In this document: piece by piece, positions 3,784 through 40,625 of the stretch | How positions within the stretch are numbered: the first letter of the stretch is position 1 | Layout of the letters: each line of letters begins with the position of its first letter | DNA from: Pseudogymnoascus verrucosus | Taxonomy: Eukaryota | Assembly: GCA_001662655.1 (NCBI GenBank) | Contig: KV460220.1 | Length of the DNA stretch: 64,000 nucleotides | Reading direction: 5' to 3' (one strand) | The notes under the pieces: generated by a model | The model's input: only the letters and a program-made list of their open reading frames with translations | Database searches by the model: none | Told to the model about the DNA's origin: nothing | Made by a program: the position numbers and the translations under genes

Positions 3784-4548
3784 ATGCGTCGGTCGCTGTT
3801 GCCAGTAGAACCTTGGCCGGCCAGTCGTGATGCCCCCATATCTGACAACGACAGGCTTACACTGCGCTTCCCAATCATCATTAGCCAAGACAGCTTAATC
3901 TCATCCGCTGAGAAGCTTCAGGAGCTCGTTGGTCTTCCAACGCTCCCCCCGGTTGTGACCACACGGACAGCACCCAGGCGATGGGCGCCTAGGCGAGGGG
4001 AAGTTTTGGAGGCTACTCCCGCTGACAGAGAAGTGCAGATATGTCATGTTGACGGGGATCAGCTAGATAAGATTGAAGAAGCCACGGAAGGCGAGTCGAT
4101 TAGCGTATGGTTTAGGGGGATGAGAAGGGACGCCTGGATGGCAGAGTCGCTAAAGCTAGTATCACAGAACTTAGATATCGGAGAGAGTCTCTCGTCGCAA
4201 CAGACTCTAAGTGCTGAGGAGGCCAACTTAGAGGAAACGCAAACTGCACACACGTCGCCATGGTCAGCGGGAGCTTGGCAGGCCGCTCATGAAGCCTACT
4301 CGTCTGGCACGGATAAGCCTCCGCCACGATTCCCAATCATCATTAGTCAAGACAGCGTAATCTCATCCGCTGAGAAGCTCCAGCAGCTCGCTGACCTTCC
4401 AACGCTGCCGCAGATTGAGACCACAAGGACAGCACCTAGGCGATGGGAAGATTTGGACGCCCCTCCTGCCGATGATAGAGAAGTATATATATGCGATGTC
4501 GATTTGGGCCAACAAATCAAAATTGAAGATACCACAGAAAGCGTCTAG
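3784..4548 (+). CDS. Hypothetical protein with an internally duplicated ~75-aa domain
   Basis: ORF 3757..4548 (first ATG 3784). RFPIIISQDSxISSAEKLQxLxxLPTLP...TTRTAPRRW...ADxREVxICxVD occurs twice. Confidence 0.6.
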   Translation: MRRSLLPVEPWPASRDAPISDNDRLTLRFPIIISQDSLISSAEKLQELVGLPTLPPVVTTRTAPRRWAPRRGEVLEATPADREVQICHVDGDQLDKIEEATEGESISVWFRGMRRDAWMAESLKLVSQNLDIGESLSSQQTLSAEEANLEETQTAHTSPWSAGAWQAAHEAYSSGTDKPPPRFPIIISQDSVISSAEKLQQLADLPTLPQIETTRTAPRRWEDLDAPPADDREVYICDVDLGQQIKIEDTTESV

Positions 4549-27778: not shown

Positions 27779-28438
27779 ACGGTGGTGATAACTGTGGTGT
27801 TAAAGACGTTTTTCGGAATTGGATTGTCTGGGGCATAGGAGATGGTGGCGTTAGTGATATGAAACAGGCTAGCTAAGGTCATAAAGAGCATTAGATATTT
27901 CAAAGAAGATAAGACGTTTGTGGGAAGTATAGTGCTGCTAGTTCCAGGAGATATATTGATCTTGCAGCATGCGAGTATCGACACCTTCCTTAAAAACTGC
28001 CTTGATCGGAATATTAATACGGATTTCCAAAAATATATATCTTAGACTCGAACCGCAGAATGCTTTAATGAGGCTCGTATGTTTAATAAGCTAGTTGACC
28101 GAGCCCCGACGCCCCAGGAAGTTGATTCCTACGCAATCAGCGTCAATTAATAATCTTCCATGTATTGTGAAGTGGTCTCAGGTCACAACCCACCTGCCGA
28201 GAGCAACGAAACACTTTACTTTATGAGAAAGCATAGTAGGAGACTTGGAGTTAACGAGCCTACGAGTGTTGAATATGTGACATCCCGGCTCAAGCCGGAT
28301 GCATTTCCAAAGCCACCACGCAAAGAAATTTCACGAAACTGTCTCGTAGACGCGCCCCCATGTGCCGTTTTTATTTCAATCATATATGAACTATGAAATA
28401 TAGAACTAGATTATATTAGTTAGGGGCTAAAATTTAAC

Positions 28439-28852
28439 ATCTGTTCCGGCCCAACCACCAACTTCTCAGTTGGTGTTCGGCCGGCCTAACCGCCAACTCA
28501 AAGTAGCTTTGCACTATAATTTATATGTAAAGATACTTATTCTTAATTTCTTCTCTACTACTTTATAATAGTTAGCTAGTATAATAGCTACATCTATACT
28601 CTAATTATAACTACTTTTATATCTTCTAAAAGTAATTAAGTTGTAGCAATAACTATATTTTATTAAGTACTAGATAGTACTTATAAAGGCTACTTTTTAC
28701 CTACTAATTTACATAGAGAAGAACGTGCACAGTAAGTACCTTGTAAATAAGTAGCATTGCATAGAAATTACACCAAAAAGCTACCTTAGGTTGGTGGTGG
28801 TTAGGCCGGCCGAACGACCAACCTGAAAGTTTGGTGGTTCGGCTGGTCAGAT
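28439..28852. mobile_element. Degenerate non-autonomous DNA transposon (MITE-like) with ~105-bp imperfect terminal inverted repeats and a RIP-like AT-rich core
   Basis: Left arm atctgttccggcccaaccaccaac...gttcggccggcctaacc...gtagcttt...tacttatt (28439-28541) matches the reverse complement of 28746-28852. The interior is TpA-rich and non-coding. Confidence 0.7.
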
Positions 28853-29281
28853 ATCTTCGGAATAACAACACCCCGATTAATAATCGGACGTCATGGAACC
28901 AGTTACGAAACGCCATGATTCAAGAGCTCGCTAAATAGAGAAACTTGTCACAATGCTCTAAGAGAATGACAAATCTCGGGAGTATTACGAGTGATTAATG
29001 ATCTCTTTTAGATTTTGAGTTTTCTATATCCTTAAAAAGTTAGCTAATGCTAGTGTTTAGGATAAATATACACTAGCCCGGAATCTTGCTTGCACACATA
29101 TGCTTTATTCATGTTTCGTACATTCCTGTCACGGCTAAAGAATTACACCTCTGTAAGCCACTATTTAAAGCTCCGAGGTTTCCCAGCTAGAAATTTCACA
29201 AGTGTTATTTATGCTATAAAATTATATCTTATCGTAGCACTCCTTGTCTGCTTCTACTTCTTGTTAAATCCAGGGAGGGCT

Positions 29282-30393
29282 ATGTCCCAAAAGGCTCTTT
29301 TACTTCGAAAGGTGGGCACGCCACTGGCTCTGGGTGATCGCCCGATTCCTCAACCCGGTCAGAATCGGTTGTTGGTCAAGGTTCTCGTCGCTGGGCGTGA
29401 GTTTGACAAGTGATCCTGCGGAGGCGCACCGATGCTAACCCTCACCTTCTAGTCAACCCCCATGATCAGAGAACTCGCGACGCCGGCCTCTTCGTCACGA
29501 GCCTGCCTTATGTTCTTGCTAGCGATCTAGTCGGTGAAGTCGTGACCGTAGGCAGAGGGGAGCATTCTACGAAATTTGTCGTTGGCGATCATGTCTTTGG
29601 GCATACATTCGTCAAGGATGGTGATGCCAATGACTTTAATGGTCTTCAGCAATACGCTCTTGCGGACGCGCGATTCGTTGCCAAAGTGGCGGATACCGGT
29701 TTGGCCGATGATGAGGCATCAACAATACCAGTCATCGTGTTGGCTGGGTTCATTGCTCTCTTCTCCAGCTCTGGTCTTGGCCTTCCTCCGCCGTTCTCGC
29801 CGGCGGCAGGCTCCTTCGACTTCGCGGCCACCACTCTTCTAGTTGTCGGAGGCGGCTCTAACACTGGAAGGGCTACAATTGAACTGGCAAGGTTGGCAGG
29901 AATTGGACGAGTTATTGCAGTTGCCGGGCTTCACAATGAGGCCGAGCTCAAAGCCCGGGGGGCTTCCCATGTGATAGACCGGCACACCGCCGATGCGTTG
30001 GAACAAGTCCGCGCTATCACTGGAGATGACCTGATCTATGCGATTGACACGGTGAATACTGGTCAGGAACAGGAGCTTGGCGTTGCTGCACTTTCAAACT
30101 CGAAGCGAGGTACACTCATCACGCTCCGTCGAGCTGACGGAGAATTTGATCCTGACCGCATTGGCACGAAGACGGCAGGTTACGAGCGTAGGCTGGTGAT
30201 GGGCATCTCACCAGTACATCCGGAAGTAACGGTGGGCTTTTGGAGAGAGGTCCCTGCGTGGCTTAAAGATGGGAAGATTAAGCCAAGCAATTACAAGGTT
30301 GTGAAAGGTTTGGACGCAGATGCCATAAACGAGGCTCTGGATAGTTACCGGGACGGGAAGGTAGAAAAGACCAATGTCCACCCATGGGAGTAA
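29282..30393 (+). CDS. Medium-chain dehydrogenase/reductase (zinc-independent enoyl/quinone reductase-like)
   Basis: MSQKALLL...PIPQPGQNRLLVKVLVAGLNPHD (intron 29397-29452), VLASDLVGEV, VVGGGSNTG nucleotide-binding motif, LKARGASHVIDR. Confidence 0.85.
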
Positions 30394-30935: not shown

Positions 30936-31943
30936 CTACTGATCATCTGTCAGCCCCACCATCTTCAACGAATCTTTCCAGAGCCGAGCCTCTTTCTCGG
31001 GATCATAAGCATGCCCTGCAAACCCTACACCAGTGATCTCGTGATTGTTGTTTCCACGGGTTGTTTTGCCGCACTCAGCAAGATATTCTCCACCCTTCTT
31101 GTCCCATTCCTGCCCAATCGCAGCCCACACCGTCGTTGCAGCGCCCTGCTCTGGTGACTTCATCATTTTGTAGGCCTTTTCGTCCGTTTTCAACGTTTCG
31201 ACCATAGCAGGGTCCATATGCTGCATCAATGCCGTCGCAATCATGCCAGGATGCACACTATTAGCGTGAAGGCCTCGCGATCCGTAGCGCCGCTCGATCT
31301 CATTGGTCATGAAGATGTTGGCGGTCTTTGATTGTCCATATGAAACCCAGTCATTATATTCAATTTTCTTAAAATTGTAGTCGCCTGATTCATTAATCGA
31401 GGCGACGTGATGGGCAGAAGAAGAGAGATTCACAACTCGAGATGAGAACTCAGCGGTGGTGCTAGCGAGGAGAGCTAGTTTCAAGAGCTCAAAGAGCAGA
31501 AAATGGGCGAGGTGGTTAACTCCAAACTGCATTTCAAAGCCGTCTTTCGTGTACTCCAACTTGGGCAGAGCCATGATACCGGCGTTGTTGACAAGGACGT
31601 TGACTTGGTTGTTCGACTTCTGGAGAATGGCTTTCGCGGCAGCACGCACACTGCTCAAGGAAGTATTGTCCATCTCAATGAGTTCAATACGCCCTGGTTC
31701 GAGGATCCTGTCCAGAGCAGTCTTGGCTTTGTTCAGGTCTCGTGCTGTCAACAATAGTCTTGCTCCAGTCAAAGACAGAGCGCGAGCTGTCTCGATCCCT
31801 ATTCCAGACGAAGTGCCTGTGATGACGATAACCTTCCCGGCTAGCTTGCCCTCTACTCCTTCGTCCTTGATAATCTGAAGGGCTGTCGGACGAGCGTCTC
31901 CCGGGCCACTAGGATTCAAATGAGCTTCTGCGTATCGGGACAT
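30936..31943 (-). CDS. Short-chain dehydrogenase/reductase (retinol dehydrogenase/WWOX-like)
   Basis: GPGDARPTALQI, TGTSSGIG, NNAGIM, GFEMQFGVNHLAHF, catalytic YGQSK, SVHPG. Confidence 0.92.
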   Translation of the reverse strand: MSRYAEAHLNPSGPGDARPTALQIIKDEGVEGKLAGKVIVITGTSSGIGIETARALSLTGARLLLTARDLNKAKTALDRILEPGRIELIEMDNTSLSSVRAAAKAILQKSNNQVNVLVNNAGIMALPKLEYTKDGFEMQFGVNHLAHFLLFELLKLALLASTTAEFSSRVVNLSSSAHHVASINESGDYNFKKIEYNDWVSYGQSKTANIFMTNEIERRYGSRGLHANSVHPGMIATALMQHMDPAMVETLKTDEKAYKMMKSPEQGAATTVWAAIGQEWDKKGGEYLAECGKTTRGNNNHEITGVGFAGHAYDPEKEARLWKDSLKMVGLTDDQ

Positions 31944-32342
31944 CGTGATTGAATAAGGGACCTGGCAGATTCGGTACTAGGTAATGGTTGAATGAAACGT
32001 TTCTGACAAGTCTTTAGTTTCAGCTTTCGGGAGCATAGGTGAACTATTTATCTTGCTATTTGTTGCATCAGACCCTTGGAATGGTTCGGAGCTTTTGTCT
32101 CTGTCACCAATATTCGGACCATGAAATATCCCAAGTGTAGCGCTATGTTTGGCCCTAATGAACTTACCAGAGGTGACCATCAGCCGCTTGATTTTTAGAG
32201 TTTAACATATCCTTATAACAAGGATAACGAATCAAGAGATTAAACTAGCATGGGCAATAGGCTTGGCCTGATATCCTAATAGCGTGACTAGTATGGTGTA
32301 GACGTGGCATTTTTGAGTTGCAATACCGCGCGCCAATCCGAT

Positions 32343-32776
32343 CTACAGCCCAAGAAAGTCCGACTGCTTTGAAATGTGGAATATGATTTGTAAACGCGGG
32401 ACTGGGCACTCCGTCCGTTCAGGAATTGAAGGCATTTCTACCGCGGCTCACTAAGGATCATATGCTGAGTCTGGAATCCACGCTAGCTTAGTTCCCTTGA
32501 TTTGTGTCGCTCACTATAAGGATATTAGTTGCACATCTCTCCGCCTCCGATTTCGACTACAGCTTAAGAAAGTCCGATTGCTTTGAAATGTGGAATATGA
32601 TTTGTAAACACGGGAACTAGGCACTACGTCCATTCGGGAAGGGAAGACATTTCCACCACGGTCCACTAAGGATCATATGCTGAGTCTGGAATCCACGCTA
32701 GCTTAGTTCCCTTAATTTGTGTCGCTCACTATAAGGATATTAGTTTGCCCATCTCTCCGCCGCCTCCGATTTCGAC
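32343..32776. repeat. Tandem direct duplication of ~215 bp in a divergent promoter
   Basis: Copy 1 ~32343-32556 and copy 2 ~32557-32776 both run ctacagc..aagaaagtccga...cactaaggatcatatgctgagtctggaatccacgctagcttagttccc...ctccgatttcga. Confidence 0.92.
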
Positions 32777-33036
32777 AATGTTGTGAACACATCACAACCA
32801 AATTCAACCTGAAATTACTCAGCCCACATTTCTATAGCGATAATACCGAGATCTTGGCATAATCTGCTGTTCTTCCACTCTCCTCATAGTCCTCTCTTAC
32901 TTTGACAGGTAACTTTCACCCCCCTCAACCCCCGAATTTACCACTGCAACCTGTTCACGCGAACCGGTGCATCCTTACGCTTCCCTTTAGGATTTGACGC
33001 TTCAATTCAGCAAGAGGCGAGCCAAGACAGCAAACA

Positions 33037-34305
33037 ATGGGTTCCTCTAGGACCGCGATTCCCCACTCACAGCGCGTGGCGCTACGCCACTATTATCAGA
33101 CTACCAACCCAAAGCCATCTCACTCTGCTCTTAAAATATGGTTCAAATTTCATTTCGGCCACGAGATCAGTCAGTCCATTGTCAGCCGAAGCCTAAACGA
33201 TAGCTTCGCTTATCTTGACATCTATGTTCCAACACGTCAAGTCGTCCCTAAGTTCCGTATGCGAAGCTGCCAATGGCCTTGGATAGATTTGTTGCTCTCC
33301 GATTGGCTTCATGTAGTAGAGGGTCTGTCAGGTAGAGTGTCGAACGACGTCATCAAACGCAAGGCCAGGCAGATATGGAACGACTCAGACGAGTCACAGG
33401 GTTTAGCGATGCCAAAATTCTCTTCGGGCTGGGTTGCCAAATTTAGGAAAAGACACGAGATGCAGCATCGGCCTCCTCCAGATCGACACCATGCCCTGGC
33501 GACACCCGGCCATTTAACTTCTTCGCCATCACATAATGGTTCTGTACAGACACTCGAACAAGCTCCTATTATATTTCCACCCAAGTCAAAGGCAATGACA
33601 AGGAATGTTCTCTCTAATAGTACCAGCCCCGACTCTGAATTCAGCACATCGACCACCCTCACCTTCTCCTCTGATCATCTAATTCACCTTATTCAACACA
33701 ACGTCTTCCGAGCATTAATCTCCAATAAGTCTCTACTTCGTACTGCAGCGATTTTTTTGAAAGCACCACATCCCGCTACACTCGGCAACGAATCCACTAC
33801 AAGGCTTTGTGGCGGCCTGACAGTCATCCGTCCACTTTCTGACCATAATATGCCTAGTTCACTATACCCAACGCTACTACAGATGAACTGTGTTCACACA
33901 AGCTGGATTGATATGTTTCCTTTCCCGAAGTTTCGAGATAATCTCATCAAGAAAGGTGTGGAGTTTGTGCCTGAAAAAATGCGCCAGGACCTCTTCGGTG
34001 ATATATTTCCAGACTTTGTCACACCGATCCCAGGCGGCAATGAGAGTGCGCTACTATCGACGCTGCCGTCAACCCCTGCAATCAGCGGTGCCAGCAACGA
34101 TAGGGAGTTTGGAAATCCAGACGATTACACAGCTGGGCGCAGATGTCTGATTACCTGGGGTGACCCGTGGAAAATCGAAAGCTGGGAAGTCACGCCCGGT
34201 TTTTTGAAGAGTTGGGGATGGGCATTAGAAGGATGTGATGATTTGATCCAAGCAAGTAATCGATGGCGAGCATTGAGAAATGAGGAGCTCATGACTTCTC
34301 CATAA
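33037..34305 (+). CDS. Putative transcription regulator: CENP-B/pogo-type HTH (ABP1_N + Tc5 HTH) fused to a DUF3425 domain
   Basis: N-terminus QRVALRHYY...LKIWFKFHFGHEISQSIVSRSL...WPWIDLLLSDW...VSNDVIKRKARQIW...FSSGWVAKFRKRH. C-terminus PSSLYPTLLQ...HTSWIDMFPFPKFRDNLI...WGDPWKIESWEVTPGFLKSWGWAL...SNRWRALRNE. No DDE domain, and the ORF is intact. Confidence 0.8.
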   Translation: MGSSRTAIPHSQRVALRHYYQTTNPKPSHSALKIWFKFHFGHEISQSIVSRSLNDSFAYLDIYVPTRQVVPKFRMRSCQWPWIDLLLSDWLHVVEGLSGRVSNDVIKRKARQIWNDSDESQGLAMPKFSSGWVAKFRKRHEMQHRPPPDRHHALATPGHLTSSPSHNGSVQTLEQAPIIFPPKSKAMTRNVLSNSTSPDSEFSTSTTLTFSSDHLIHLIQHNVFRALISNKSLLRTAAIFLKAPHPATLGNESTTRLCGGLTVIRPLSDHNMPSSLYPTLLQMNCVHTSWIDMFPFPKFRDNLIKKGVEFVPEKMRQDLFGDIFPDFVTPIPGGNESALLSTLPSTPAISGASNDREFGNPDDYTAGRRCLITWGDPWKIESWEVTPGFLKSWGWALEGCDDLIQASNRWRALRNEELMTSP

Positions 34306-34700
34306 TATGTGGATAATTTAGCTACCAAAGTTCCTCAGATATTGCATCCCACTCGATTGAATATCGGCTCGCTATGGGGAGGTGCAAAGCTCGTGAAGAA
34401 ATGATTATATGTGTGGTCTCAATGTTGACTGTGTAACCAGTTGTCAAAAGTAATCCCAGGCTTCAATCATTAATATTTGTGTCGTGGCTGGTTTCTTGTT
34501 GTCAAATACGTCGCAACTTTAAATGCACTAAGACAAGTCAAAGAGGACGGTACTCTGTTATCGATGGTGTGGGTTCTCTAAATGTGTTTTGGGGCGAGAA
34601 AACACTATATGCAACAAAAGGAATGTCAAATTAAATCACATTTTCTTCTGCGCAGGATACCTTCGAGAAGTCAATCCGAATTCGTTGCGCCTGTCGCGTC

Positions 34701-35626
34701 TCAAGAAGAGCCAAGCCATTTCCCTAAGAACTCAATCTGTCCTCTAATATTCTGTTCAAACCAATCCCCAGTATAGATGTCAAAATAACCTGCGCCATCA
34801 ATATACAAAAGCTGCTTTGGCTCGATGGCCTTTTCGTACGTGGCCATCTGAGATGCCGTGGTGGTGACAAGAATGTCGTTCCCAGGAATGACCATCAACA
34901 GCGGAGTCGGCGAGATACGATGCACCATACTCTGTCCTTCAAAAGCTAGCATATTGAGCTGTGTCTGAGCCGTCACAGAATTCTCCCAACGACCACCGCA
35001 ATCGTACGAACCGCGCACCTGCTCATAAGCATGGACACCGGGAAACATGGCAGTAGTGGTCCCTGACTGCGCTGCTTCCAAGTTCTCCGCAATAAGTGGA
35101 ACCCTTTTTGGTTCTGATCCTGTAATGATACGAGCGCACTCTTTCAGAATACCCGGGATTCGGTCTTTGAAGGCCAAGGATCGCGTCTCTCCAGACACTG
35201 CAGGGCATTGTACGATAGCAGCTTTGTATACTATGCGAGTATCATCATCCACACTGGGGAATGATGTCGCGAAATTGAACGCATCGTAGTAGTCGGCTTG
35301 TTGAAGGGGCGGGTTTGACTCTTGCCGCGGTAGTCCATCACTGTCACCCCAATTCCGATTATCATAGAGGAGTACACTGTACCCGCCTTGCTGGAATCGA
35401 TCTGCGAAATTTGGAAGCCAATAGTGGCGGACACCACCAGGCTATTTGTAACAAACGGACGAGAATTAGCCAATTTCATAAGAAAATTCAATATCTCAAT
35501 AATTACGGAGTACGCACCCCGTGGGTCATGATCACACACGCCGATTTCTCAACTTGGGGATAACTATCCCCGGAGCATAGTGCTATCACAAGTTTTGAAC
35601 TCAATGGTTTCACGAGCGAGGACCAT
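34701..35626 (-). pseudogene. Alpha/beta-hydrolase pseudogene (AidA/CocE-like family)
   Basis: MVLARETIEFKTCDSTMLRG* has TAG at 35564-35566, then a frameshift before VIMTHG. Exon 2 has YDNRNWGDSDGLPRQE...DYYDAF but jumps from RIVY straight to KAAIVQCP, lacking the GxSxGG nucleophile elbow. The expected C-terminal His reads GAGYFD. Confidence 0.75.
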
Positions 35627-36191
35627 TGTTACAGAGATATTGATTGTTCCAGGTGTAAGTCGAAATTGAAGATTGTCGAGTTGGCTATTTGAGAACGACA
35701 AATAAAGTAGCAGAGGCGATATTATGATATTGTCCTCCTGTTCTTTTGCAAGCCTAGGTTTAACAATGGACGAGTAATCCGAAAACCATCGAACTTTTGA
35801 TCACGTTGCTTTAGCCGACCGGGGTGTCCCTCGTGATCCCCGCCCGAGGTTGCTCAAGTGATTAGTGATTAATCTGATGTCACACATAAGACAGCATAAA
35901 TACCATTTAGAAATGTGAACTACATTAAAAAACGGCAAAAAACATACAACAGTGGGTATTCGCTGGTGGTCACCCACCCAACTACTAATCCACCGATCTC
36001 AAGCTTGTGTATGGCAGAGCGGACGGGATGCCCAATTCTCTTGAGTCTATGGTCGTATGTGTCTGTTCTTCGAGTGTCGTTGATTATATAGCGAATATCA
36101 AGTATTAGTCGTGGCTGCCCAATTTGCCCTTCGGTGAGTGTAAGTAGGTCGACGACATAATCAGGTATGCGGCTCGGCGCAGAAGAACAGA

Positions 36192-36296
36192 GCAAGCAAA
36201 GTAACGATATGCCACAATGTGCGATATGTTTACTTATAAACATATCTATTACTTATAAACATATCGCACATTGTGGCATATCATTACTTTGCTTGC
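36192..36296. repeat. 41-bp inverted repeat (1 mismatch) with 23-nt spacer
   Basis: gcaagcaaagtaacgatatgccacaatgtgcgatatgttta (36192-36232) versus taaacatatcgcacattgtggcatatcattactttgcttgc (36256-36296). Confidence 0.95.
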
Positions 36297-36863: not shown

Positions 36864-39800
36864 TTACATGTGTACGCATAATTCTTCAGGAATGGTAGGA
36901 GGTAGGTCAGCCGATTTTACCAGCTGATTCCCACACACTGGACAGCTATTTGTTTCCGTAGGGGGACAGAACCTACATATGTCGAGATATTCACACTCAT
37001 AGCGCTCTGCATTTTTCGAGAACCGTCCGAGGCAAATATCACAAAACCGGCTACTCAAATCCTTAGATGGCAATGTAGCCCAAGTTTCTAGGTTTGAATT
37101 TTCTGCTTCGCTTGTTTCGTAGAGGAGCGAGTGGATTTCATGCATTCCCCTCTGCTGGGCCACCATGGCCGGCGTAAGTCCCCAGACATCGGAGCAACAT
37201 TTCTCAACGCCTGGTAAGCTGATTAGGAATTGAATCATGTCTAGATGGCCTCCGCAGACAGCAGCAAATAGTGGTGTTCGTCCAAATCGATCTGGGGTAT
37301 CTGGTCTCGCTCCAGCTGTTATAAGGAGACTCGCTTCCGATATGTGGCCTTCGGCGCTCGCTATGTGCAAAGGGGTTCGACCAAGGAAATTCAAATCAGG
37401 ATTATTCCCATGTTTGAGTAAAGCCCTACCAGCCACATCATGGCCACCCTCAGCCTCCACCAAGGGCAACTGTTGTGGTCCAGTCCCAAGAGGTTCCGGA
37501 TTAGCGCCCCTATCTAAGAGCAGTCTAAGTACCTTCTCATGGCCACTCCATGCAGCCCAGGATAGCGAGGTGTAACCTAATTGATCACTACCATCGATGT
37601 TGGCGCTATTGTTCAGGAGCATCGTAACCACCATATCGTTGCCATTCATGGCTGCTAATTGTAATGGCGTTTGTCTCCTGTGGGACTTTGGGTCAATACA
37701 GGCACCCCTGTTCAGAAGAAGCTTCACAGTCGATTCTGAGCCATTGAAAGCAGCTAGGCATAATGGAGTCAGGCCGTCGCTGTCTCGTCTAGCCTTAATA
37801 TTGGCACCACTATCTAACAAATGTTTGGTTTGTATTTCGTAACCCCTTTTTGCAGCTCGATGTAGTGGCGTTTCCCCCTCCGTGTCCTTCGCTTCGGTGT
37901 TGGCGCCCCTGCCTAAGAGAATCCTGACTACGCCTTCGTTGTTCACCTGCCAAGGTAGGAAGACCCTAGTGGCTTTATGTAGTGGTGTTTCGCCATTTTT
38001 GCCGATAACGTTCGAACTAGTTCAAGGAGCAGTTCAACTATTGTCGGTTGACTACTAAATGCCGCGTGATGTAACGCGCCTTCTCTATATTCACTCGTGC
38101 TTTTGAAATTGGCGCCCATACTTAGAAGCAGTTTGACTGTCGTCGTATGCCCTCGTTTTGCGGCTGTAACAAATGGAGTCCTTCCCCAGTTAGACTTAGA
38201 TTCAATGTTGGCGCCTCTATCCACCAGCAGTGTGAGCACCATATCATGGCCTTTAGATGCAGCAGTATCTAATGGAGTTTCCGAGCTTCCATTCTTGATT
38301 TCAATATCAGCATTATTATCTAGGAGAAGGTTGGCAATCGCTCCATGACCCTGCGACGCAGCCGCATGCAATGGTGACATGCCATCCACGCATATTATAT
38401 CGGTGTGGGCTCCCCTGTCAAGAAGCATCTTGGTTACCATCTCATGGCCGTGGATTACAGCAAAGAATAGGGGTGTGTTATTAATTGAGTCAAGAATATC
38501 CACGTTGTTGGGATTTGTTACAAGAAGTTCTTGCATCAAATGCTCGAGATTGAAAAATGCTGCAATGTGCTCTGCCTTTACATCACTCGTTTTTACCCCG
38601 CGTGTCTCAATGCCAGTAAATGGTTCAAATCCGCAGCGATCACGATCATATGCGGATATTTTAGCCTGACTCTGAAGAAATTTTAGAGCATTAGATGAAA
38701 TCTCAGGCCCTTCTCGGAAATGATGTCCCCAATTGTAGGACGCGTAATTGTAGAAGGGGTATTCGCGAGGAATCCCTTCAATCTCAGCTTCGGTTTGGAA
38801 TCGATCTTCAAACACATCATATGATACGTATGTCAAACAACTATCCGCCATGAGATCGTGAATATTGGGGAACCACGTCTTCTAGGTGTCCTCAAAGTAC
38901 TTCTAGGTGGTGTAGTGTACGAGCGTCACATTTCTCGTTTGCTCGTCCACAGTAACTAGACTACAGCAATATGAAGTCAACTGTTCGATGTTGGTGATGT
39001 TCGTCTCGTCAAATTCGCTCGTTTCAATCTCGACCGCTAGCGCATGTTCCAGCTCTGCGACGGTCAGGGTTCGTCTGGCGTTTAGGATCCAACCGATGGT
39101 CTTCTTCGCGAGGTCAGAAGCATTTGCACTCTGGCGATCGATTCTGCTCATAGTCTCATTATACGCATGGTCATAAGCATTAGACTCAGAGCCAGTGCGG
39201 AACTGTTCCAGCATCCTTTGAATTCCCTTTTCGTTTACTTAGTCGAGGAGCAGGTCAAAATAGAGCCGAGCAAGGAGGAACCTAATTATATTAGCACTGA
39301 CTTAGAATGGCACAGATATCGTACATTTCTTTAGCAAATTCGGTAATAGTATCCTTGATGACCAGCTGCAGGTTTGGCCTCTTTCGAATAAATAGCGGGA
39401 GATCTCCTAGGCGCATGTCGACATAGTGCTGGATATCTTCAGTGCTTGCCCGTATCTCAAGGGAAGCGACGCCCTCAAAATACACCGCAATCTCCTGATC
39501 TAGTCGAGATGTTGCAAGGATTTTGAAACCTTCATCTTGCAGACGGACAAGCCGGCGAATGAATGGGTGACGTACGCTGTGACCACCATCGGAAATCCGG
39601 CATTCATCGAGGGCATCGATGATGACAAAAGCTCTTGTGCACGAAGAAAGGACAGATCGTAATTCGCCGAGCACCTCACCCTCGGAAGGACGACTCCCTT
39701 TTAACGAGTAGTTTTGATAAAATGATCTAGTACTCTCCGGAATTGAGGTCTTTCGCTGCACGGCTTGTCTTAGAAGGGCAGAATAGAGCTCGACAAGTGC

Positions 39801-40625
39801 ATGCTGCTGCCGATAGTTGCAAAAGAGGTACGCGATTCCGATCTCGTCTTGGTTAGGAAATACCTGCTCTAGGTGATCAATGATGATTGATGAGAGAACT
39901 GTCTTTCCGGCCCCAGGAATCCCAGGACAGAAGAGAATCTGCTCTTCGCCGCCGACCCATTGCTGAAACCTCTCCGTTTTCAGCAACCACGTCCCTGTCC
40001 CATCCTGGTGAGAATTGAATACTTCGCTTTGCCGTGCCGAAGGGCTGATTGGGCTTAGCCAAGATAGGATCTTCTCACGTTCATGATCTTCTTGCCCCCG
40101 GTTGAGTTTTTCGATTCCGTGTCTATCATGTTATTCAAAGACATCAGAGTGAGTGTGGGAAGTAGTCATACTGGTTGGCCTTCCCTACAATGAGATTCAG
40201 CATAGAAATATTGGACACGATCCGCGATCGGAAATTGTTGATCTCCGTCTGATCCCATCTGAGTCTCTTCCACGTCTGGCGTACTTTGCCCTTCTAGTCC
40301 GGGGTTGAATCGTTCGCGATAACATTGAGTTTGTTCAGCTTGGCTGAAAGCTCCTCGAGAACATTCTGGCAGCCTTGGATGACTTTGTGGACGCCATCTT
40401 TCTGCTGGCTATCAAATTCTTTTTCATCGAGGCCGTCGATACGGTGTAGTGTGAATATGAGAGATTCGACTCTGGCATCAGTCAATAATGTAATGAACTA
40501 AAGGGTTTGTCTTACTCCTCAGTAATTGCTTTGTACTCTCTGGGAGCCTGCGCAAAGCGGCCTCGCAGGTCGTTTGCGAGTTGTACCAGTAGCACGAAAT
40601 CCCCCACGCTATAGCCGAAGCTCAT
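36864..40625 (-). pseudogene. Fungal NLR (STAND) pseudogene: SesA/HeLo-like N-terminus, NACHT, ankyrin repeats, Cys-rich tail
   Basis: MSFGYSVGDF start, Walker A GIPGAGKT, Walker B IIDALDE, many TPLH ankyrin repeats. In-frame stops at ~40294 (TAG), ~39239 (TAA), 38903 (TAG) and ~38883 (TAG). 1-nt frameshift near 38017. Confidence 0.88.

Follow-up and report, generated by a model that had tools for sequence, protein, structure and literature searches.

A 64,000-nucleotide stretch of Pseudogymnoascus verrucosus DNA (contig KV460220.1 of assembly GCA_001662655.1, here termed the window) contains an open reading frame (ORF) in which a transposase-type DNA-binding region precedes the host domain DUF3425, and the question raised by this locus is whether such a chimera is a working regulator, where its two parts came from and which genes it would control. 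The ORF is located on the plus strand at 33037..34305 and forms one open frame from ATG to TAA, a single exon encoding 422 amino acids. Three Pfam matches, all exceeding the curated cut-offs, define the architecture. The first DNA-binding subdomain, HTH_ABP1_N, covers residues 5-61 (33049..33219, plus strand, E 4.4e-21), the second, HTH_Tnp_Tc5, covers residues 83-144 (33283..33468, plus strand, E 1.3e-11), and DUF3425 is matched over residues 271-401 (E 1.8e-13). In alignments the conserved C-terminal unit exceeds the span of the Pfam DUF3425 model, extending over approximately residues 206-418 with an additional conserved N-terminal helix (33652..34290, plus strand), and the fusion junction lies in a linker of residues 145-205 (33469..33651, plus strand). 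No DDE family is matched in the protein at E<=1 in Pfam, and a bZIP basic region is absent: Pfam assigns residues 5-144 to the helix-turn-helix (HTH) pair, and the fusion alignment lacks the basic motif of the relatives. An earlier sequence-only reading of the window had described an intact single-exon ORF with a bipartite CENP-B/Abp1/Tc5-type HTH in the first ~140 amino acids, no DDE endonuclease and a DUF3425 domain in the C-terminal ~200 amino acids, and each part of that description is borne out; the peptides SQSIVSRSL and FSSGWVAKFRKRH are both present in the regulator.

The only significant sequence match of the regulator in the PDB is Schizosaccharomyces pombe Abp1 (PDB code 1iuf), aligned over residues 4-141 with an E of 6.5e-19. 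The full-length AlphaFold model shows two helical bundles, a disordered linker at residues 148-206 with pLDDT <50 and a folded C-terminal domain, and Foldseek places Abp1 (1iuf, E 1.4e-4) and CENP-B (1hlv, E 0.02) at the top ranks for this model. The DUF3425 model is confident (pLDDT 83.8) but has no Foldseek match in the PDB at E<=0.001 and a best Z of 2.4 in a wide search, which does not imply a novel fold, and the ESM Atlas gave no usable match beyond PF11905. The regulator is present as one copy in its own genome, in which a profile search finds no second HTH_ABP1_N, and no terminal inverted repeats (TIRs) flank the ORF among the inverted repeats listed for the window. One residue separates the regulator from the nearest named protein.

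The arrangement HTH_ABP1_N, HTH_Tnp_Tc5 and DUF3425 recurs in 30 of 86 homologue clusters. The named hosts are Pseudogymnoascus, Oidiodendron, Botrytis, Sclerotinia, Cadophora, Leptodontidium, Halenospora, Hyaloscypha, Glarea and one Fusarium, so that the distribution is Leotiomycetes plus one Fusarium, host orders having been looked up for five of them; named orthologues include Bcin14g01670, SS1G_02824 and NECHADRAFT_75804. Identity to the window regulator falls to 38% in the farthest members, the linker decaying first. In a comparison with the regulator of a second fusion locus (L029, 58% identical), dN/dS is lowest in the C-terminal part (0.12), followed by the DUF3425 core (0.22) and the HTH region (0.27), and highest in the linker (0.60), from one pair with pS of 0.51-0.62 and synonymous sites near saturation; in this pair both halves are under purifying selection (0.12-0.27 in the domains). 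One contig of 1542 letters from sequencing run X1 spans 32792-34320 unspliced and crosses the fusion junction at ~96% identity. The 30-cluster family, the X1 contig and the dN/dS values together rule out a gene-model artefact or a young neutral accident, and the protein is a real, conserved and uncharacterised host-transposase fusion regulator.

Upstream of the regulator and divergent from it lies a gene for a short-chain dehydrogenase/reductase (SDR) of 335 amino acids (30936..31943, minus strand; adh_short, E 4.4e-28), covered by an X1 contig at 30807-32066. This SDR is a conserved partner. At L029 an SDR gene is again divergent from the regulator, despite only 58% identity between the two regulators; SDR and regulator accessions are adjacent in two Hyaloscypha assemblies; and in Botrytis fragariae the two are merged in one gene model with the SDR downstream on the same strand. 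Three environmental regulator records pair with SDR records of equal source-sequence size, which suggests the same linkage. The next gene encodes an oxidoreductase of the medium-chain dehydrogenase/reductase (MDR) family (29285..30393, plus strand; ADH_zinc_N and ADH_N) with a GT..AG intron at 29397-29452 that is skipped in X1, a run in which the intergenic DNA is uncovered. A further GT..AG stretch of 70 nucleotides with a branch-point-like word, 28991-29060, upstream of the MDR start, is also skipped in the X1 RNA and is probably a 5' untranslated-region intron of the MDR gene. The sequence-only reading had placed the divergent SDR, the neighbouring MDR and a nearby element resembling a miniature inverted-repeat transposable element (MITE) correctly and had proposed that the regulator may control both oxidoreductases. 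The tie to the SDR is upheld as a predicted one by the neighbours in L029, Hyaloscypha and B. fragariae, and linkage to the MDR is found in the window only, together with co-expression in X1.

Related genes that lack the fusion show a comparable layout. At all three non-fusion loci read (L002, L030 and L031) an SDR faces the DUF3425 gene, and a salicylate-induced four-gene cluster of Aspergillus nidulans includes a DUF3425 gene (PMC7842363). The layout in which a regulator faces an oxidoreductase therefore looks older than the exchange of DNA-binding heads, and suggests that bZIP-DUF3425 proteins in general may be local regulators of adjacent oxidoreductases.

The origin of the two halves can be approached separately. 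HTH_ABP1_N followed by HTH_Tnp_Tc5 is the domain pair of the Lemi pogo transposases, which occur in 30 Pezizomycotina species with Leotiomycetes included, and intact DD34D Lemi elements are tabulated for Pseudogymnoascus species (PMC7386202). The regulator carries exactly this module in this order. The closest non-fusion relatives of its C-terminal domain have a bZIP-like basic region. Of the 68 rows of a DUF3425 tree, 28 are fusions, and 26 of these group in one clade (SH-aLRT 98). This clade lies among the 40 non-fusion rows, and a bZIP-like basic motif is present in 29 of those; an unresolved fork leads to the two most distant fusions, and one row counted as a fusion (P0031, Rutstroemia) has a gene model that begins past the HTH. 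The grouping of the regulator with bZIP-DUF3425 proteins indicates that a bZIP basic region most likely gave way to the head, and a single exchange from bZIP to HTH is the simplest reading of these sequences, although not a proven one. The proposal that a new DNA-binding module had been placed on DUF3425 thus holds, with a pogo-type head in the position normally taken by a bZIP head. The accompanying statement named a bZIP or a Zn2Cys6 domain as what usually precedes DUF3425. The own genome has 19 DUF3425 matches at ~18 loci, and in the 18 loci scanned simple patterns detect a bZIP-like basic motif at 7 and a Zn2Cys6-DUF3425 arrangement at none.

The donor of the head may have been a mobile Lemi element or a gene that was already domesticated. 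The second possibility, in which the same regulator received its head by domain shuffling from a catalytically dead CENP-B-like gene, bears on origin alone and would fit the same regulatory model; we regard it as a serious contender that falls somewhat short of an even chance. An HTH-only profile gave 31 matches, 24 of them with DUF3425 and the other seven with DDE_1. None of the seven DDE-bearing relatives retrieved, which include conserved Penicillium and Talaromyces genes, retains all three catalytic aspartates at the motif positions, so that the donor may have been a domesticated gene. These relatives are 29-38% identical to the regulator head, and the regulator ORF has no intron at its junction, unlike splice-mediated capture. 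Against a dead donor, the retrieval was biased towards such genes, since only the 8000 best word matches were scored and the query included one DDE-bearing protein. Intact DD34D Lemi elements are on record from Pseudogymnoascus, and in one tabulated row, translated by hand, ~23 of 54 positions of the first HTH match the fusion (PMC7386202). The dead DDE-bearing genes also group apart from the fusions in the HTH tree (92/96). The seven proteins with HTH_ABP1_N, Tc5 and DDE_1 (P0207 and P0343-P0348, some from Penicillium and Talaromyces) are apparently further domesticated Lemi-type genes of filamentous fungi.

Alignment of the window promoter with that of L029 contains one long exact match, and a single 11-mer, TATAAGGATAT, is present upstream of the fusion gene in the window, at L029 and at a third locus, L032, alike; a shared 11-mer occurred in 0 of 2000 shuffles of the three regions. 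L032 had been held out from the choice of the word, and a copy arose in 4 of 5000 shuffles of that region. The word is located ~200-300 nucleotides upstream of the start codon at all three loci. Three exact copies lie between SDR and regulator in the window, at 32730..32740 (plus strand), 52 nucleotides upstream of the 5' end of the X1 contig, at 32515..32525 (plus strand) and at 32207-32217 (minus strand), the last facing the SDR and followed by an inverted AAGGATAA at 32220-32227. The second copy derives from a tandem duplication; the promoter contains a head-to-tail repeat of ~215 bp, ~90% identical, at 32343-32776, which doubles one copy of the word. Copies with one mismatch are found at 32271..32281 (minus strand) and at 29026..29036 (minus strand), the latter within the skipped stretch 28991-29060 upstream of the MDR start. 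The AGGATA core, counted on both strands, recurs in all three promoters, with 4 in 873 nucleotides (equalled in 12 of 5000 shuffles), 5 in 879 (0 of 5000) and 4 in 1253 (10 of 5000). AAGGATAW does not occur in any of the three non-fusion DUF3425 promoters, and no exact TATAAGGATAT occurs within 1.5 kb on each side of the domain at any of the 17 other own-genome DUF3425 loci checked, L061, which overlaps L056, having been omitted. From these comparisons TATAAGGATAT is probably the binding site of the regulator.

The word also resembles the ends of some Lemi elements. In 6 of 20 fungal Lemi rows, compared by eye, the inner TIR reads TATAACGA, one base from TATAAGGATAT, the Lemi counterpart of the 11-mer being the word TATAACGAT, and three more rows have TATAAG at the inner TIR. 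A hand estimate puts the chance of so near a match to at least one Lemi repeat at ~1 in 10, and the Lemi likeness is consequently suggestive only.

An alternative for the operator, which we consider unlikely, accepts the regulator as real and explains the shared word as a TATA-like core-promoter element or the site of another factor, with the true target elsewhere. The word begins TATAA, and both its distance to the 5' end of the RNA contig (a possible TATA position) and its roughly similar placement before the start codon at the three loci would suit such an element. Its conservation nevertheless continues past TATAA through GGATAT, the AGGATA core recurs without a TATA start in all three promoters, and AAGGATAW is missing from the three non-fusion DUF3425 promoters.

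Several further points weigh against the regulatory reading of the locus as a whole. The operator is defined from three upstream regions only; a single tandem duplication accounts for two of the three copies in the window, and at L032 the gene is partial, with neither a neighbour nor DUF3425 in view. Genome-wide, TATAAGGATAT occurs 39 times compared with 22 for a control word and is therefore not exclusive to the regulator locus. The exact word is not in the Lemi table, and the Pseudogymnoascus Lemi TIRs, by eye, read TTAAGACGAT and lack it. In the DUF3425 tree, which was midpoint-rooted, monophyly of all 28 fusions has a support of only 3, and the missing catalytic triads described above belong here as well. 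The X1 sequence comes from a 96%-identical relative and its status as RNA is only a guess; the junction is bridged in one run of four, with X6, X7 and X13 giving short ORF pieces without a bridge. Two or three paralogues of the regulator are present in several Helotiales genomes, including Cadophora and Leptodontidium, and paralogy can thus explain part of the tree conflict described below. As a separate observation, at two of the multi-site loci, on C9 and C37, TATAAGGATAT is found within TA-rich sequence, from which nothing is drawn.

The fold of the head raises the possibility of a different function altogether, that of an Abp1/CENP-B-like chromatin or transposon-surveillance protein which binds Lemi-derived repeats or the nearby MITE, with the SDR a mere passenger. 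Abp1 is the closest solved relative, a curated Botrytis list marks the orthologue Bcin14g01670 as 'no, centromere related' (PMC8637145), and the candidate word resembles some Lemi TIRs. The own genome has no other HTH_ABP1_N, no intact Lemi-type protein and no match to the Pseudogymnoascus Lemi TIR; no Lemi element is found in it by family, protein or TIR pattern, in an assembly that may be incomplete. The MITE (~28442..28850) belongs to a DNA transposon with an rve integrase, not to pogo, and contains neither TATAAGGATAT nor AGGATA. In addition, the DDE-derived body of Abp1-type proteins is missing from the regulator, and the SDR linkage is kept across distant members. A surveillance function is for these reasons very improbable. 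Binding of the regulator to the MITE, which the sequence-only reading had entertained, fails in particular, since the element is of integrase type and lacks the candidate word. We take the MITE to be Ginger-like. In the 2.1-kb members of its family the inverted repeats are long and end in TGT, and a remnant of an rve integrase is recognisable (E 1.7e-7, narrowly missing the curated cut-off). Two of these members, L042 (G000:C20:465039-467158) and L043 (G000:C41), are likely parents of the MITE.

The distribution of the regulator-SDR pair poses a separate problem, as regulator and SDR are 88-96% identical across fungal orders. The window regulator is 93% identical to that of Halenospora, 91% to that of Hyaloscypha and 89% to that of Cadophora DSE1049, which represent three Helotiales families, and other Helotiales regulators are 47-76% identical overall. 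The linker is 79-89% identical to those of Halenospora, Hyaloscypha and Cadophora and only 10-36% to those of Glarea, Botrytis and Sclerotinia. The SDR is 96% identical to the Hyaloscypha and 88% to the Leptodontidium protein. Of nine control genes, seven were found, and the clusters of all seven consist entirely of Pseudogymnoascus among the organism-named members listed, at most 15 per cluster. The Fusarium copy falls with the group formed by Pseudogymnoascus, Halenospora, Hyaloscypha and Cadophora in the HTH tree (100/99). From these sequence comparisons the regulator-SDR pair appears to have moved horizontally between fungal lineages.

Near-identity across orders could instead reflect slow evolution combined with loss of paralogues, or contamination of assemblies, an explanation that touches the distribution only and that we think rather improbable. 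It is favoured by the multiple paralogues per genome in Cadophora and Leptodontidium, and the rejection of Helotiales monophyly by the approximately unbiased (AU) test (p 0.0015) does not count against it, as the groups had been chosen post hoc from an earlier tree and paralogy would lead to the same rejection. The linker nevertheless retains its high identity across orders while being unconstrained, and none of the seven control genes shows a cross-order cluster among the members listed. The contigs of the named hosts span 42 kb to 3 Mb in four separate assemblies. Judged by locus tags, four other Pseudogymnoascus genomes lack the block here; they have 4-5 tags in the interval from the GNAT to the MFS gene on either side, compared with ~10 genes and relics in the window.

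Starship-associated features at and beside the edges of the block point to a possible vehicle. At the left edge a decayed DUF3435 (Starship captain) fragment is present at 27956..28346 (plus strand), with a PF11917 match at 28032-28208 (E 1.3e-7) and one stop; it is 71-75% identical in DNA to another captain relic on C18, and stretches with three captain relics gave no match to the block. To the right of the block lies a broken NACHT-ankyrin (NLR-like) gene (~36864-40625, minus strand) with several stops and a frame change. Both DUF3435 captain genes and NACHT-ankyrin genes are associated with Starships (PMC9156397); the NACHT-ankyrin gene is present here in broken form, the captain only as a short broken fragment. 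A complete 5S rRNA gene is located near the right edge (35941..36060, minus strand; RF00001, 74 bits). Directly before the MITE, a segment of 91 bp (28346-28436) is 96% identical to L066:1414-1591 (G000:C17), where it adjoins the truncated 3' part of a 5S gene; in the window it is separated from the 5S gene by 7.5 kb, a gap that suggests insertion of the block. The 91-bp segment may mark the end of an element that favours 5S genes.

Other features of the region and genome are noted separately. Downstream of the regulator there is a broken alpha/beta-hydrolase gene (34701..35625, minus strand) with a weak Hydrolase_4 match, an in-frame stop after the start codon and pieces in different frames. 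Just upstream of the 5S gene, an inverted repeat of 41 bp, 98% complementary with a 23-nucleotide loop, occupies 36192-36296. In the own genome (G000), broken DUF3435 relics occur at 19 places, most with TAG or TAA stops, and two open stretches lie near C46:252973-253811. At a distance from the block, an ORF at 3784-4548 (plus strand), beside an F-box-like gene, contains an internal repeat of ~70 amino acids (FPIIISQDS...SAEKLQ, twice).

The mechanism proposed for the locus is that of a local, sequence-specific transcription regulator that would have arisen through an exchange of domains. An ancestral gene of the bZIP-DUF3425 type, opposite an oxidoreductase gene, would have lost its bZIP basic region and acquired the pair of HTH domains of a Lemi-family pogo transposase as its new head, probably once, either before the Leotiomycetes or early in their history. 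The head is predicted to bind (T)ATAAGGATAT sites in the shared promoter and would from there control the divergent SDR, probably the regulator gene itself and possibly the MDR, with DUF3425 as the putative effector or sensor. The pair would be stably inherited in Botrytis and Sclerotinia and would also have moved recently between orders, with the decayed Starship-like block as its presumed vehicle here. It is on balance probable that the HTH pair binds AAGGATAT sites in the shared promoter and that, through DUF3425, transcription of both SDR and regulator is modulated as part of a small module for detoxification or catabolism. A bolder form is advanced only tentatively. In it the captured Lemi head still reads a one-base variant of the TIR word, which has become the fixed operator of a self-regulating regulator-SDR detoxification cassette; as no host factor would use the site, the cassette would be insulated from host wiring and could cross fungal orders as Starship cargo, with DUF3425 a small-molecule sensor of a fold not yet in the PDB. 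The family of 30 or more clusters, the candidate operator and the signs of horizontal spread are absent from the sequence-only reading.

Transposase capture is documented mainly in animals. The present family offers a compact fungal case in which the donor family and the ancestral bZIP-DUF3425 state can be named along with an 11-bp site and a target gene, both predicted, and it provides a handle on DUF3425, a domain without known function. No characterisation of an HTH_ABP1_N, HTH_Tnp_Tc5 and DUF3425 fusion was found in print, subscription papers and bioRxiv supplements aside. Similarly, no publication was found for the gene identifiers of the Botrytis and Fusarium orthologues, and no Sclerotinia identifiers were among the matches listed. 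Automatic databases label members 'HTH CENPB-type domain-containing'. The Botrytis orthologue was dropped from the list of transcription factors under the centromere remark given above (PMC8637145), an annotation that is corrected here in a major crop pathogen. In the supplements of a kingdom-wide fungal screen neither PF11905 nor PF03221 appears, and the fusion is not listed (PMC10799480). What is new is the SDR neighbour shared by distant members, the candidate site and the cross-order near-identity beside a captain relic.

The nearest protein found in print, from Colletotrichum orbiculare, combines a CenpB-type HTH with DUF3425 in a single gene model; it differs in having homeobox and C2H2 domains too and is reported from one species (PMC8406175). 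The Lemi pogo transposases share the HTH pair with the regulator, occur in Leotiomycetes including Pseudogymnoascus and have a TIR word one base off the candidate site (PMC7386202). Unlike them, the regulator has no DDE domain, no flanking TIRs and a single copy, and a host DUF3425 stands behind its head. The bipartite HTH head is shared in sequence and fold with Abp1, Cbh1 and Cbh2 of S. pombe and with human CENP-B (1iuf, 1hlv). These proteins retain a DDE-derived central body behind the head, in place of which the regulator has DUF3425, and it is set in a small oxidoreductase module. Pdc2 is presumably a further pogo-derived regulator. The Abp1/CENP-B proteins act at centromeres and retrotransposons (PMC10799480). 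The DUF3425 body is shared with the bZIP-DUF3425 transcription factors TeSrdA (PMC12765306), A7370 of C. lunata (PMC13113314) and the FfbZIPs of F. fujikuroi (PMC9223689), and that of the regulator is up to ~50% identical to non-fusion relatives; the regulator differs in having a transposase head for the basic region, and the upstream word is not common to both. A parallel is offered by the KRABINER-type host-transposase fusions, in which a transposase DNA-binding module is likewise joined to a host regulatory domain in a conserved and expressed protein (Cosby et al. 2021, as cited in PMC10799480). In comparison with these, the regulator described here is fungal and encoded by a single exon, its DDE domain is wholly gone, its predicted reach is confined to a local pair of genes, not a network, and it is apparently mobile between species.

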